This document shows positions 32,397 through 37,726 of a DNA stretch of 42,702 nt, one piece after another. A program made the position numbers and the translations under genes. The stretch lies in assembly GCA_049510745.1 (NCBI GenBank), contig JBEKYR010000044.1:1-42702 (forward strand). Direction: 5' to 3'. The notes under the pieces are model-generated. The model made no database searches. It was not told the DNA's origin and saw only the letters and a program-made list of their open reading frames with translations. How positions within the stretch are numbered: the first letter of the stretch is position 1; every line of letters begins with the position of its first letter. Source of the stretch: Verrucomicrobiota bacterium (GTDB taxonomy: Bacteria; Verrucomicrobiota; Verrucomicrobiia; Limisphaerales; Palsa-1400).

Positions 32397-32411
32397 ACGG
32401 ATGGCGGGCTT

Positions 32412-32556
32412 GTAATCATAATCATAATCATAATCTTAATCTCAGTCTTGTCCTCAAGAGGATTAAGCTTAAGATCAGGAGCAAGCTTAAGATCAGGAGC
32501 AAGATTAAGATCAGGAGCAAGATTAAGATCAGGAGCAAGATTAAGATCAGGAGCAA
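32412..32556. repeat. 6-mer-arm palindromic element with five tandem 18-bp units (G[AC]TTAAGATCAGGAGCAA)
   Basis: (TAATCA)n at 32412-32441, then units at 32467, 32485, 32503, 32521 and 32539; no spacers. Confidence 0.9.
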
Positions 32557-32577
32557 GAAACGGCTCCCCAAAAAAAG

Positions 32578-32712
32578 GTGAAATCCACCCTCAACCCGCC
32601 GGAACTCGCGGCTTCCCGCCAGCGGTTGGAATCGGTGGATTTGTTGCGTGGGTTTGTGATGGTGCTCATGGCGCTGGACCATGCGCGGGGGATGTTCACC
32701 AACGTCCCCTAC
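32578..32712 (+). pseudogene. DUF1624 (HGSNAT-like acyltransferase) gene, 5' part, interrupted by insertion
   Basis: RLESVDLLRGFVMVLMALDHAR...NVPY; family similarity ends at the duplicated GTCCCCTAC. Confidence 0.85.
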
Positions 32713-35700
32713 TGGAGAGTGAAACGTTCTCAGGGGAGCTTCCTGTCAATTACGGGAACACGACAACGCGGTAAAAGCCTTGGGGCGTGTTGGTGGCCCC
32801 GGTGTCAATGACTTGAATCGTCCCCGAAGCCGCGGAATTCGTGGAGATTGTAACCCATTGCGTCAAGTTGCTCGAAACCTGGACTTCCGCCGTCCCCGTC
32901 CCGGTCAGACCGGTGATCTGAAGCACGACCATTCCGTTGGTGTATTGGATTGCGGCTCCGTTGGTCGCAAATGAGAGCGGAGCGGTCGTGACGCTTAACG
33001 TGCCAACCAAATTGGACGCCGTGCCGTAAGCATTCGTTACCAGCACAGAGTAGAAGCCGGCGTTGGTCAACGCAGCGTCGGTGATCGCAACCGACGTCTT
33101 GGTGGCTCCCGCCATCTTGCTGCCGTCGAAAAACCATTGGTAATGAAGCGGCGTGCTCCCGGTCGCGGTTACAGAGAATGAGGCGTTTTGGCCAACAGTG
33201 ATCGATTGGTTGGTTGCGGGGCTGGTGATTTGAGGCTTCACTCCCACGGTTGTCACCGTGAGCATGGCAAAATCGCTGGTAATAGAGCCGTAGGCATTGG
33301 TGATGATGACTTGGTACGAACCTTGATCCGACGCCTGAACGGGGTTGATGGACAGGTTGGTGGTTAACGAACCGATGATGCGCGCGCCATCGGAGAGGTT
33401 CGTGTTGTTATGCTGCCACTGGTAATACAGCAGGGGTGCTCCCTGGACGGCGACGGAAAACGGGTCCGGCCCGCCGCTGGTCACAGACTCATCCTGCGGA
33501 TCCGAGACAATGCTGGGACCGTTTTGGGGGAGGTTGGTGACATCTATGCCGTTGTTGAGCATCTCGTTTATGTAAGTGTTGTTTTCGACTCCGAGCGGGG
33601 CTGAGTTCGTGATGAAATCGAGATCGTTGAGCTGGATTTGCAAGCTCTGCAGTGGCGAAAGAAACTGAAAAATGTTCCCCGTGAAATGGTTCGAACTGAG
33701 ATTGAGGGTCTGCAATTGGTGGAGGCTCAACAAGCTGGCCGGGATGGAGCCGCTGAGATTGTTGCTGCTCAGATTCAGTGTCTTCAATTGGCTCAACTCG
33801 CCAAGATTGGGGATGGCGTTGGTCAAATTATTCTGGCTCAGGTCAAGGCTTTGCAGCAAAACCAGATTATTGAAATCGGCCGGGATGCTGCCAGTGAGTT
33901 GATTGCCGCTCAAATCCAGCTCTTCCAGCAGGGTATATGCTCCCAGGTTGGGGATGTTGCCGCCCAGATTATTAGCACTGAGGTCCAGATGCTGCAGAGT
34001 GGCGGCGTTCAGGGAGAGGAAAAACCCCGAGGCGACCGGGATGGTGCCTGAGAATTGATTGCCGCTCAGGTCCATGGATTGGAGATGAGCAAAGATGCCG
34101 ACATTGGTCAGGCCGCCGCTGAAGGAATTGTCGCTCAAATCAAGCAGGGTGAGATTGTTCATGATGCCGAGGCTGATTCCGCTGGTCGAATTGGTCAAAC
34201 CATTGTGGCTCAAGTCCAGCGTTTCCAATTGCGCCATGTTGCGAAGATCGAAAGGAAGACCTCCGCCTAAATCGTTCGCGCTCAAGTCGAGTGTCTTCAA
34301 CGTCAGGCTCAGGCTGCCAAATCCCGTCGGGATGGCGCCGGTCAACTGATTGGAACTCAAATCCACCGCTTGCAAGCGCGTCAGGAAAGCGAACACGCCC
34401 GGAATACTGCCCTTCAACTGGTTGGAGCTGAGATTGAGGGTTTCCAACCCGCTGAAACTGTTCAGGCTGCCGGGAAGGTTTCCCGACAGGCCGTTCGTTT
34501 CCAGGCTGATTTCGCGTACAGTGCCGGAGTTGAGAATAAAATTGTTTTCCAGATCAAACTGCAAATTCGTGACTTCCACCCCGTACCATTCAGCGGACAG
34601 CCCATCCAGCCAGCCGCTGTGGTCCTTCCAGCCGGTCCCGACCGTCGCGTTGTAAAAATCAAGCAAGGCATTGTACTCGGATGCCGGAACCATGCTCTGC
34701 ATCCCGGCGACCGTCAACGTCACGACCACGCTATTGGTGAAGCCGGCCGCGTTGGTGACAACGACCGAATAGGTGCCGGCGTCGTTGGTCTCCACTTCGT
34801 TGATCTCCAGCGTCTCGCTGGTAGCCCCGCTGATGTGCCCTTTCGGATCACCAGCCAAATTCGTTCCATTGAGCAGCCATTGGTAGTTGAGCGGGTCCGT
34901 GCCCGCGGCTTCCACCGTGAACACGGCGTTGCTTCCCTGAATCACAAGCCGGTTGATCGGCTGGGTCGTGATTTTGGGGGCAATCAACACCGTGAGCGTG
35001 GCGTCTTCGCTGTTCGTCTTGCCGCCGTCATTGCTGACTACCACCGAGTAAGTGCCGGCGTCATTGGCGGTGACATCCGTAATGGTCAACGTCGCATCGG
35101 TCGCGCCGGAAATATGGCCGAAATCGGTGTCTTCAAGGTCCTTGCCATCGAGTTGCCATTGATACTGAAGTGGTTCCGTCCCCGTGGCTGCCACGGTGAA
35201 CACGACGTTGGTTCCAGGTAGCACCGACTGATTGGTCGGCTGGATGGTAATTTCGAGGGGACTATAAGCCAGGGCGAGGGTATTGTTGTTCGTGTTGGCT
35301 TCCGTGATCAGATGGTTTGGATCAAGAACCAGCAAAAGGTAAATGGCTCCGCTTGGCGGGTTCGCCAGATAGGAAGCCGCCACTTGGACTTCGTTGGTCG
35401 TCCCGACAGCGAAATCAGCAGGGATCGGTTCGTCGTAAATTGGCGTGTTGGTAATAATATTGGATTCGTTAGTTCCGTCTGCCCAGAACAAGGCTGCCTC
35501 GGTCGAGTTGGTCAAGGCAGATCCCTGAAGAGAGTACGCAAAGACAAGTCCGCTCTCCCCTTCGTTTGTATTCCAGTCCAAGGAGGTTGCAATGAGGTCG
35601 GGCAGTTCGGTTAGTGTGAGCCTGAACACCGTGCCATTGTTGTTCGCGCCGCCCACATAAGTCGTGCCATAGAAATTGCTGTCGCTGCCCTGCACCAGCC

Positions 35701-37430
35701 CATTGGGAGCACGGCCATTACTGCCATTGAAGGAAAACAAACTGGTGAAGGCCCCATCGAGGCTGATTTGGAACAATGTGCCGAAGCCGTATGGCTCCGC
35801 CCCACTCCCGTTATAGTCCGTCGAGCCGCCTACGGCAGTCGTGCCATAGAAATAGCCGTCGCTGCCGTGAACCAGCCCAGCTTGGGGCCATGCGCCATCC
35901 AGCGGAGCACCATCCGTATTAGTGACAGCGCCGAAGTCATAAAGAGTGGTCAGCGCCCCATCGGGGCTGATTTTGAACACCGTGCCATAACGCCAATTAG
36001 GGTAATAACTGCTACTCGTGCCGCCTTCTTGAGTAGTGCCATAGAAATAGCCGTCGCTGCCCTGCACCAGCCCATTGGGACGACCTCCATTACTGCCATT
36101 GAAGGAAAACAAACTGGTGAAGGCCCCACTCGGGCTGATTTTGAAAACCGTGCCCCAACCATAACCGCCGTTGAGATTAATGTTGCCTCCAAACTGAGTC
36201 GTGCCATAGAAATAGCCATCGCTCCCCTGCACCAGGCCTACAGGCCCCTCGCCATCAATGCCGTTGAAGGAATACAAACTGGTGAAGGCCCCGCTGGGGT
36301 TGATTTTGAAAACCGTGCCCCAACCCTCACCGCCGTTGAGACTAATGTTGCCTCCAATGTAAGTCGTGCCATAGAAGTAGCCGTCGCTGCCCTGCACAAG
36401 CGCGGCCCCGGGCTCGTCACCATTACCGCCAGTGAAGGAAAACAAACTGCTGAAGGCCCCACTGGGGCTGATTTTGAAAACCGTGCCAAAACCATAACCG
36501 CCGTTGAGATTAATGTTGCCGCCATACTGAGTCGTGCCATAGAAGTAGCCGTCGCTGCCCTGCACCAGCCGAGCATCGGGATATAGGCCATCCAGCGGAT
36601 CACCATCCTCATTAGTGACAGTGCCGAAGTCATAAAGATTGGTCAGCGCCCCACTGGGGCTGATTTTGAACACCGTGCCATAACCAAGACCGTAGTTGAG
36701 ATTAGTGTTGCCGCTAAACTCAGTCGTGCCATAGAAATAGCCATCGCTGCCCTGCACCAGCCCGGCCAAGGGCGACGCGCCATCAGTGCCATTGAAGAAA
36801 AACAAACTGGTTAATACCGCACCAGCCGAGGCACCGAAAGCGGGCAGCAGGAGCAGGGCTGCCCAGAGCAATCGCATAAACAGAGCGGCTGACAAGAATT
36901 GCCTTCTCGATTTCATAACTTTTTGAACGACCGTGCTCAACGGGCAACTGCTCCATCCCCCGGCACGGACGCTCTGGCCGCGTCGGGTGGAGGCAAGCCA
37001 ACTGAACTTGTTCCCATTCATAAAATGAACGCAACTCTTCACGACACGGACTTCAATTTGTGACCAGATCAATTGTGACCGGACGACCCGGCTAATTTTC
37101 GACTTTGTGGTGCTTTTTATCCCATGGTCTCTGTGCTCCGCAAGCATAAAGGGGACCAATTGTTAAGACTGGGGAGCGGTACGTTCTCCCACCGCAAACG
37201 AGTCTTCCAAGTAACTGCTCGGCTTACCCTTGGTTTGCAACAGGTTATGAAAGCAGTTATTTTCACTTAAACAGCCCCACGCGCTCCGTCACACCTGGCC
37301 GGAATTTCTCGCTGGTTCACCCGAAAGCGTTTCACTCAAGAAATTCCCCGCCTCCAAAATCAGCTTGGCCCGCTGTGGCTACGCCGACATTCTTGGACTG
37401 GAAAAGGCTGCATGAATGTACCACTGTGCA
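32713..37430. mobile_element. Non-autonomous cargo insertion (4,718 bp) with 9-bp target-site duplication
   Basis: GTCCCCTAC at 32704-32712 and 37431-37439; ends TGGAGAGTGAAACGTTC and (reverse complement) TGCACAGTGGTACATTC match at 12/17; removing the insert restores the frame [12 protein letters not shown]; no transposase inside. Confidence 0.85.
32750..36916 (-). CDS. Large secreted/surface protein: 7 GloVer (TIGR03803-like) propeller repeats, CARDB-like domain, 2 Ig, plant-type LRR block, 2 Ig, Verrucomicrobia-type C-terminal domain
   Basis: Seven LV(Q/H)GSDxxFYGTT...GT(V/L)F repeats; QPxN...YQW...DAGTYSVVV Ig motifs; about a dozen LxxLDLSxNxLxGxIP repeats after an EYNALLDFYNAT cap; ends QVSSNLTQW...GFYRV. 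Start probably ATG 36916 (or 36877). Confidence 0.9.
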   Translation of the reverse strand: MKSRRQFLSAALFMRLLWAALLLLPAFGASAGAVLTSLFFFNGTDGASPLAGLVQGSDGYFYGTTEFSGNTNLNYGLGYGTVFKISPSGALTNLYDFGTVTNEDGDPLDGLYPDARLVQGSDGYFYGTTQYGGNINLNGGYGFGTVFKISPSGAFSSLFSFTGGNGDEPGAALVQGSDGYFYGTTYIGGNISLNGGEGWGTVFKINPSGAFTSLYSFNGIDGEGPVGLVQGSDGYFYGTTQFGGNINLNGGYGWGTVFKISPSGAFTSLFSFNGSNGGRPNGLVQGSDGYFYGTTQEGGTSSSYYPNWRYGTVFKISPDGALTTLYDFGAVTNTDGAPLDGAWPQAGLVHGSDGYFYGTTAVGGSTDYNGSGAEPYGFGTLFQISLDGAFTSLFSFNGSNGRAPNGLVQGSDSNFYGTTYVGGANNNGTVFRLTLTELPDLIATSLDWNTNEGESGLVFAYSLQGSALTNSTEAALFWADGTNESNIITNTPIYDEPIPADFAVGTTNEVQVAASYLANPPSGAIYLLLVLDPNHLITEANTNNNTLALAYSPLEITIQPTNQSVLPGTNVVFTVAATGTEPLQYQWQLDGKDLEDTDFGHISGATDATLTITDVTANDAGTYSVVVSNDGGKTNSEDATLTVLIAPKITTQPINRLVIQGSNAVFTVEAAGTDPLNYQWLLNGTNLAGDPKGHISGATSETLEINEVETNDAGTYSVVVTNAAGFTNSVVVTLTVAGMQSMVPASEYNALLDFYNATVGTGWKDHSGWLDGLSAEWYGVEVTNLQFDLENNFILNSGTVREISLETNGLSGNLPGSLNSFSGLETLNLSSNQLKGSIPGVFAFLTRLQAVDLSSNQLTGAIPTGFGSLSLTLKTLDLSANDLGGGLPFDLRNMAQLETLDLSHNGLTNSTSGISLGIMNNLTLLDLSDNSFSGGLTNVGIFAHLQSMDLSGNQFSGTIPVASGFFLSLNAATLQHLDLSANNLGGNIPNLGAYTLLEELDLSGNQLTGSIPADFNNLVLLQSLDLSQNNLTNAIPNLGELSQLKTLNLSSNNLSGSIPASLLSLHQLQTLNLSSNHFTGNIFQFLSPLQSLQIQLNDLDFITNSAPLGVENNTYINEMLNNGIDVTNLPQNGPSIVSDPQDESVTSGGPDPFSVAVQGAPLLYYQWQHNNTNLSDGARIIGSLTTNLSINPVQASDQGSYQVIITNAYGSITSDFAMLTVTTVGVKPQITSPATNQSITVGQNASFSVTATGSTPLHYQWFFDGSKMAGATKTSVAITDAALTNAGFYSVLVTNAYGTASNLVGTLSVTTAPLSFATNGAAIQYTNGMVVLQITGLTGTGTAEVQVSSNLTQWVTISTNSAASGTIQVIDTGATNTPQGFYRVVVFP

Positions 37431-37726
37431 GTCCCCTACCACCCGCTGGATTTGAGCCGGACTTTTCCGGCGCTGGCGCTGACGCGCTGGGTCACCCACC
37501 TATGCGCGCCGGTTTTCTTCTTTCTGGCGGGGACGGGCCGATTGGCTCTTCGGCCCCCAACCCGGCCCCCGGACGCGCCCCCATTCCCGTGCCGCCCAAC
37601 GCCGGATTTGACCTCGGGACGGTCTATCTGGTGTGGATTGGCCTTGTGCTGGCGCTTTATCCGGCTTGCCGGTGGTTTGCGCGCCTGAAACGGACGCGGC
37701 GTTCCGCATGGCTTTCCTACCTTTGA
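37431..37726 (+). pseudogene. DUF1624 gene, 3' remnants with a large internal deletion
   Basis: [36 protein letters not shown], then an out-of-frame jump to the C-terminal [40 protein letters not shown]. Confidence 0.85.

Follow-up and report, generated by a model that had tools for sequence, protein, structure and literature searches.

The 42,702-nucleotide contig JBEKYR010000044.1 of an uncultured Verrucomicrobiota bacterium from peat (assembly GCA_049510745.1), hereafter the window, contains a split gene for a membrane acyltransferase-like protein. The DNA that splits it is a 4.7-kb cassette in which one long gene for a predicted secreted repeat protein lies between the ends of an insertion sequence (IS). 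This cassette belongs to a known kind, that of eroded transporter ISs or mobile insertion cassettes (MICs), and its parent is an IS group that apparently has no name. In our reading, to which we assign a probability of roughly 0.55, the unit was transposed by its own transposase and afterwards lost most of the gene for that enzyme by deletion. Given transposition followed by likely transposase loss, the cassette represents a one-off relic rather than a new delivery system, and, with all its boundaries defined, it exemplifies the movement of a 4-kb gene of this type by an IS-derived unit in an uncultured peat bacterium. The components of the cassette, in order along the window, are the following.

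32705..32711, plus strand: left copy of the target duplication, TCCCCTA, read from the sequence and fitting the 6-7-bp T...A duplications of the parent IS
32712..32737, plus strand: outer left end (IRL), 26 bp, possibly extending to 32749, 24/26 identical to the left end of the complete IS at locus L190
32750..36877, minus strand: cargo gene, 1375 aa from the likely ATG, with a signal peptide predicted by eye, seven GloVer (TIGR03803) repeats, Ig domains, a leucine-rich repeat (LRR) block and further Ig domains
37169..37206, plus strand: inner, decayed left end (IRL), approximately 38 bp, from a second subfamily of the parent IS group, preceded by TTAAGA
37207..37274, no strand: AT-rich stretch of approximately 70 bp that includes an 8-bp inverted repeat, TAACTGCT/AGCAGTTA, read from the sequence
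37275..37415, plus strand: 3' remnant of an IS701-related DDE_5 transposase gene, the last 46 codons and the stop, 91% identical in amino acids to residues 450-495 of the transposase at locus L013
37413..37431, minus strand: right end (IRR), with one substitution at position 4 relative to the family consensus
37432..37438, plus strand: right copy of the target duplication, TCCCCTA, read from the sequence

The element occupies 32712-37431 (4720 bp), has CTG...CAG ends and is flanked by a 7-bp duplication, TCCCCTA. The 9-mer GTCCCCTAC, present at 32704-32712 and again at 37431-37439 (two occurrences in the window, 15 genome-wide), had been taken in the initial annotation for a 9-bp duplication around TG...CA termini. 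The repeat does stand on both sides, as does the 12/17 imperfect match between the terminal inverted repeats, but the duplication itself is 7 bp long and the outer G and C belong to the element; it looks like 9 bp because the target happened to read G-TCCCCTA-C. The termini could be corrected from the flanks of a multicopy IS relative, in which G begins 53 of 53 distinct right flanks and C ends 27 of 27 left flanks. With CTG...CAG borders, that relative yields 14 matching flank pairs at 6 bp (shuffle mean 4.2) and 11 at 7 bp (shuffle mean 0.9), values reached in none of 2000 shuffles, and no pairs at 8-10 bp; with TG...CA borders there are zero pairs at 6-12 bp. Pairs of 4 bp numbered six against ten expected. 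T comes first in 22 of 25 paired duplications and A last in 24 of 25, and 7 of 23 contiguous complete elements possess a duplication of 6 or 7 bp. Cognate ends together with a 7-bp duplication support the view, already taken in the initial annotation, that this is the footprint of DDE-type transposition.

The insertion is real. That it might be an assembly chimera or a product of chance repeats is suggested by the metagenomic origin of the source genome and by the internal repeats of the cargo, and is hardly credible in view of the junctions. Among the pieces listed, contigs bridge the left junction without any differing letter in five of eight runs and the right junction in three of eight, one of these runs possibly being the source sample; four runs with a low share are explained by low coverage. 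A metagenome locus, L115, is the cassette itself, with 99.96% identity over 11,244 bp, and both element ends have their counterparts in a real IS. The window was recovered in runs from peat or wetland metagenomes. No empty-site or circle joint occurs among the joints listed for the eight runs, whose contigs drop rare variants.

Three IS ends lie within the cassette, and the duplication stands outside the outer pair. A 'GGTACG' subfamily accounts for the right arm and inner left end, a 'GAAA(C/G)G' subfamily for the outer left end; therefore, two IS copies contributed. The inner left end opens a 263-bp module (37169-37431) that leads, past some 70 bp of unexplained DNA, to the transposase remnant and then to the right end. 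Over its final 155 bp the insert shares 92-93% DNA identity with loci L013 and L095, and the translation of 37275-37412 is the sole transposase match of that kind in the genome. The insert is thus not transposase-free, as it had first been called: 46 of 495 codons of an IS701-related DDE transposase remain at 37275-37412. TTAAGA in front of the inner left end fits the T...A target preference and may, as a faint hint, be the scar of a first insertion. Just 12 bp separate the 26-bp outer left end from the cargo stop codon. Across 32712-32752 the outer left end resembles that of L190 with a 6-bp insertion and may continue to TGTCAA (32744-32749), the point at which the IS has the stop of its DUF6788 gene and at which the cargo stop codon directly abuts.

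The parent of these ends can be recognized in related genomes. The last 155 bp of the insert match seven of 30 genomes of the family; in one genome, 24 of 24 scored candidates were contig ends. Upstream of right-end matches in G025 and G004 is an ORF of 484-495 aa matching Pfam DDE_5 and DDE_Tnp_1, and complete elements of 1872-1909 bp combine this DDE_5 transposase with a divergent DUF6788 gene beside the left end. Dozens of IS copies occur in G028. Members of this group, which is characterized by CTG...CAG ends, 6-7-bp T...A duplications and DUF6788, include:

L016:682-2553, no strand: complete IS copy
L190:34-1915, no strand: complete IS copy
L278:5530-7407, no strand: IS copy

The end sequence of these elements is CTGGA(G/C)AGTG. 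Its exact pattern was found in 20 of 401 genomes of the order and, within the family, in 8 of 24; the rows listed contain no control match. Most named records in which the right end occurs bear the label Verrucomicrobiota or Limisphaerales, and viral contigs gave one end match, without IS continuation. The transposase appears to be an IS4-like DDE enzyme with an incomplete YREK motif, taking the full spacing of that motif as the yardstick: it has D at VLVDG and ADAYY and Y-2-R-3-E-3-K at 343-354, and no K seven residues after the E. Its best NCBIfam match is transpos_IS701_3 (E 3e-44), below the curated cut-off; NF049999 scores 151.6 and 141.3 bits against a cut-off of 170, NF033540 scores 41 and 33 against 150, and IS4 family models reach 23-33 bits against cut-offs of 115-250. 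The transposase family comprises 534 protein clusters at E < 1e-30. Six plasmid records carry relatives (five at approximately 52%) that RefSeq labels only 'transposase', and so far as compared the ends match no named IS, in agreement with the initial annotation. Literature searches found no paper on DUF6788 alone or on DUF6788 with IS701; those on GloVer and on Pedosphaerales IS elements returned nothing relevant among the matches listed. The ends are those of a common, apparently unnamed IS group related to IS701. The initial annotation had stated that ends of a well-described IS family would make this an ordinary IS-derived transporter element, and ordinary IS ends are, in effect, what the cassette has. 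In one further locus, L273:8394-8704 (G030), a 300-bp left IS part is directly preceded by GGACAGTGG, a piece of the end motif, perhaps through insertion next to another end.

Table 1 of PMC2266710 gives the IS701 family as elements of 1.40-1.55 kb with ---YACT-Y--YR ends and a 4-bp duplication. The parent IS resembles that family in its best match to transpos_IS701_3, its DDE_5 domain and its incomplete YREK motif, and differs from the tabulated features of PMC2266710 in its length (1872-1909 bp), its CTGGA(G/C)AGTG ends, its 6-7-bp duplication and its extra DUF6788 gene; its transposase also falls below the cut-offs of the IS701 models. On size, ends, duplication and model scores, we do not file it as IS701. 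The IS4 subgroup ISPepr1 has a 7-8-bp duplication and CT ends, whereas its complete YREK motif, YT-AA-YTT ends and length of 1500-1600 bp, as tabulated in PMC2266710, are not matched by the parent IS. With ISH3 the likeness is confined to the Y-2-R-3-E-3-(basic) spacing; the CRGT ends, 4-5-bp duplication, archaeal hosts and 1225-1500-bp length listed in the same source (PMC2266710) are not matched. This widespread group fits none of the IS4-related families in the tables of PMC2266710 and is a candidate for registration.

IS4-like DDE transposases pair any two cognate ends, such that two copies, or one copy and a solo end, can form a composite unit. Such a process would account for the cassette. 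A complete IS would have inserted itself upstream of the cargo gene, and just beyond the cargo stop codon a second left end would have been recruited, the remainder of a sister IS that was later trimmed. The outer pair of ends would then have transposed as one extended element into the host gene, the element's own transposase acting in cis, and the DUF6788 gene and most of the transposase gene would have been lost by deletion after insertion. An intermediate of this kind is provided by a second locus:

L095:295-3007, no strand: element of 2713 bp with a 7-bp duplication, TATAACA, an autonomous IS copy with an Imm70 immunity-protein passenger

Its order is an intact outer left end (141-bp arm), the Imm70 gene, a decayed inner left end, DUF6788, the whole transposase gene and the right end, with the Imm70 gene reading towards the outer left end and its stop approximately 6 bp from the arm. 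A single internal deletion in an element like L095 would give nearly the layout of the cassette. L095 is the only other duplication-flanked cargo unit that we have seen.

The genome itself also bears on the mechanism. BLASTN and pattern scans for further copies of the ends, a check proposed in the initial annotation, revealed none beyond the three in the cassette; four matches elsewhere in the genome with one or two mismatches do not continue as IS sequence, and at up to five mismatches the outer left end has no other match in this genome. Neither the cassette nor the 263-bp module has a second copy in the genome or in 30 genomes of the family, in which the matching sequence begins only with the transposase remnant. 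The 94% complete, 5.6-Mb assembly contains no cognate transposase, which upholds the earlier description of the element as non-autonomous today, and shows no IS ends at its contig breaks, where a relative with an active copy shows dozens. Three DUF6788 matches and one DDE_Tnp_1 match in this genome were rejected as candidates, as they belong to other elements. We favour a cis jump followed by erosion over movement in trans because the cassette is single-copy, because the genome lacks both a cognate transposase and IS ends at contig breaks, because insert and host gene have visibly decayed since the insertion (a substitution in the right end, a Leu-to-Pro change in the transposase remnant and, in the host gene, a deletion) and because L095 provides the intermediate.

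Several observations weigh against this reading. L095 stands alone among the 21 full-length matches to the right end, out of 146 examined. The stretch 37207-37274 is not IS-derived: it has no match in the genome or in the fetched loci, and contains no DUF6788 remnant. No donor locus for the cargo was found, the best match in the family being 41% over the LRR region. Sixteen of the 23 contiguous complete elements have no 6-7-bp duplication (0-3-bp matches), likely because these are collapsed multicopy contigs. Finally, the internal deletion is undated relative to the last jump, and therefore erosion after a cis jump and mobilization in trans are inseparable here.

The latter is a plausible but less likely alternative. 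The 263-bp module, resembling a miniature inverted-repeat transposable element (MITE), and a solo left end would already have flanked the cargo, and a helper transposase from a related IS elsewhere in the cell would have moved the unit as a mobile insertion cassette, which is the mechanism of the initial annotation without its claim of a new system. The compact layout and the two nearly intact outer ends accord with it, as does the abundance in the family of orphan left ends and orphan right arms as raw material, and trans-mobilization has been published for IS231-derived cassettes (in the parts of PMC6199540 drawn on here) and for TIME composites (likewise for PMC4133298). Against it stand the lack of a second cassette or module in this genome and the 30 family genomes, and the lack in this genome of a cognate transposase and of IS ends at contig breaks. 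By contrast, it is very unlikely that one IS used a chance look-alike beyond the cargo as a surrogate left end, as in ISEcp1-like one-ended capture. The brevity of the outer left end (26 bp) and its position 12 bp from the cargo stop codon would suit such an event, but this end is 24/26 identical to a real IS left end, no look-alike lies within five mismatches in 5.6 Mb, and the outer left end and the right arm come from different subfamilies.

Whichever route was taken, the cassette has close counterparts. In the passages of PMC6199540 that define it, a MIC consists of two IS-derived inverted repeats without a working transposase gene and one passenger gene; MITE, MIC, solo inverted repeat and transporter IS are used here as in the corresponding parts of PMC3129680. 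Akin to MIC231, from IS231 of the IS4 family, the cassette has two IS-derived ends, one passenger and no functional transposase, and its 7-bp T...A duplication is of the length made by the parent IS (6-7 bp). It differs in being 4.7 kb long, as opposed to 0.7-3 kb for the MICs described in those passages of PMC6199540, in keeping a 3' transposase remnant and a third, inner end, in having an IS701-related parent, and in being single-copy. By its structure it qualifies as a MIC; its mobility in trans is conjecture, although a past helper transposase is possible. Like a transporter IS or a composite transposon of the Tn5/Tn10 type, it has its passenger between the ends of two IS copies and used the outer ends, and L095 is an autonomous transporter with the same layout. 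Unlike these, the cassette has no intact transposase gene (L095 has one), and both contributing IS copies, from two subfamilies, are reduced to ends. TIME-COMP and other MITE-flanked units, as portrayed in the parts of PMC4133298 and PMC10969869 used here, are similarly non-autonomous composites in which miniature elements surround host DNA; they derive from Tn3 and have multicopy MITEs, whereas the 263-bp module is single-copy and stands on one side only.

The cargo was correctly described at the outset as a single long ORF; it lies on the minus strand, with its stop at 32750. Its longest open frame extends to 37159 (1469 aa). Approximately 290 bp separate the likely start from the 263-bp module, of which the first 120 bp resemble a locus in G019 (73%), and no sigma-70 promoter or terminator match was found upstream of the gene. 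The best protein match, P0004 (64%, no context), indicates that the same architecture exists elsewhere. A foreign origin inferred from low GC was considered and rejected, the GC3 of 0.69 falling within the 0.63-0.77 of 16 other GloVer ORFs. The cargo is unremarkable within its large family of repeat proteins, which are predicted to be secreted, and its composition is typical of that family in this genome.

By motif count, the genome has approximately 150 GloVer repeat matches in 20 ORFs. An IS end (at most two mismatches) lies within 3 kb of one of these 20, the cassette ORF, and the 141,543 bp of 19 GloVer or Ig-LRR loci in relatives contain no end or IS match. The element ends do not account for the GloVer expansion, contrary to the proposal of a system that moves adhesin-like genes and explains the growth of GloVer/Ig/LRR proteins. 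A dedicated, widespread system shuttling surface-protein genes in Verrucomicrobia is accordingly improbable: the cargo is GloVer/Ig/LRR, an Ig+NHL gene in G022 is followed, 122 bp past its stop, by an orphan left end and a GloVer gene in G014 has an orphan right arm some 5.6 kb upstream, but the counts just given (1/20 and 0/19), the occurrence of the exact end pattern in only 20 of 401 genomes of the order, the Imm70 passenger of the sole other duplication-flanked unit and the want of a duplication partner for the G022 and G014 ends all oppose it. The largest of the 20 GloVer-type ORFs is an open frame of 5748 aa at G000:C8:238218-255462.

A related idea, speculative and in our judgement rather doubtful, is that the IS group itself (DUF6788 with DDE_5), active in peat Verrucomicrobiota, habitually captures the gene beside its left end by means of a new left end past the stop codon. 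The passengers (GloVer-Ig-LRR here, Imm70 in L095 and perhaps Ig-NHL in G022) would then always lie in the DUF6788 orientation. If true, left-side capture would be a route by which surface and conflict genes are reshuffled, and only as a habit of the parent IS group would it lend the cassette a larger significance.

The 146 right-end matches from two collection scans divide into 110 that run into a contig end, 21 full IS copies, six truncated copies (L115, the cassette, among them) and nine with the motif only. Orphan left ends of 26-73 bp occur in G006, G008, G016 and G022, and orphan right arms of approximately 150-160 bp in G001 and G014. For the orphan ends in G006, G008, G014, G016, G022 and G049, up to 20 kb of surrounding sequence (approximately 50 kb in G014) yielded no partner with a convincing duplication. 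In G022 (L267:1604-3057), the solo 26-bp left end beyond the gene for the 443-aa Ig+NHL secreted protein has the same orientation as in the cassette, and no right end lies in the 18 kb examined. At window 37276-37431, L021 (G001:C43:1233-1389) and L020 (G014:C15, approximately 89743-89894), each in a different genome, homology of the orphan right arm to the IS ceases at 150-160 bp from the right end, with an IRL-like GAGTGG..CGT just upstream of that point, inside the transposase gene; the common breakpoint would reflect either shared ancestry or a deletion hot spot. In G001, a decayed left end on C50 (L229:10456-12449) and a right arm on C43 (L230:1233-11843) have matching 5-bp flanks, CATGG, and enclose Hen1, an FN3/GH30-like secreted protein and others. 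This is a possible old composite of 12.6 kb, unproven because flank matches of 5 bp are not enriched, the junction between the contigs falls at a palindromic repeat and the empty site was sought without success.

The gene interrupted by the cassette is represented by two segments.

32563..32711, plus strand: 5' part of the host gene, approximately the first 50 codons (start approximate), 82% identical in DNA to nucleotides 1-134 of the intact 402-aa orthologues L022 and L023
37432..37726, plus strand: remainder of the host gene, with orthologue nucleotides ~235-1014 deleted near 37535 and a frameshift

Its orthologues match Pfam HGSNAT_cat (PF07786), which we take to be the former DUF1624. The flanks of the insert translate as ...GMFTNVPY and HPLDLSRT..., matching TNVPYYPLDLSRT of the intact 402-aa orthologue, which is uninterrupted in the relatives G016 and G025. 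Removing the insert does not restore the host gene, contrary to the earlier supposition: a separate deletion of approximately 780 bp, at short GGG(A/C)CGGGC-type microhomology, has also shifted the frame, and the host gene is therefore a pseudogene with or without the insert. The uninterrupted orthologue that the initial annotation proposed to look for beside the uracil-DNA glycosylase (UDG)/SMUG1-like gene and moxR, as a syntenic empty site, was not found in five genomes; intact orthologues adjoin neither gene, and the query used did not find the host gene in two same-genus genomes. Between the UDG-like gene and the host gene lies a low-complexity tandem array (32405-32558) of TAATCA hexamers followed by about six 18-bp AAGATCAGGAGCAAGATT units, which breaks assemblies in the runs examined. 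The orthologue in G028 is uninterrupted at the insertion site and shorter further on, with approximately 210 bp where intact copies have approximately 780 (L024, G028:C28:45097-45619), and the host gene looks to be decaying independently in several lineages.

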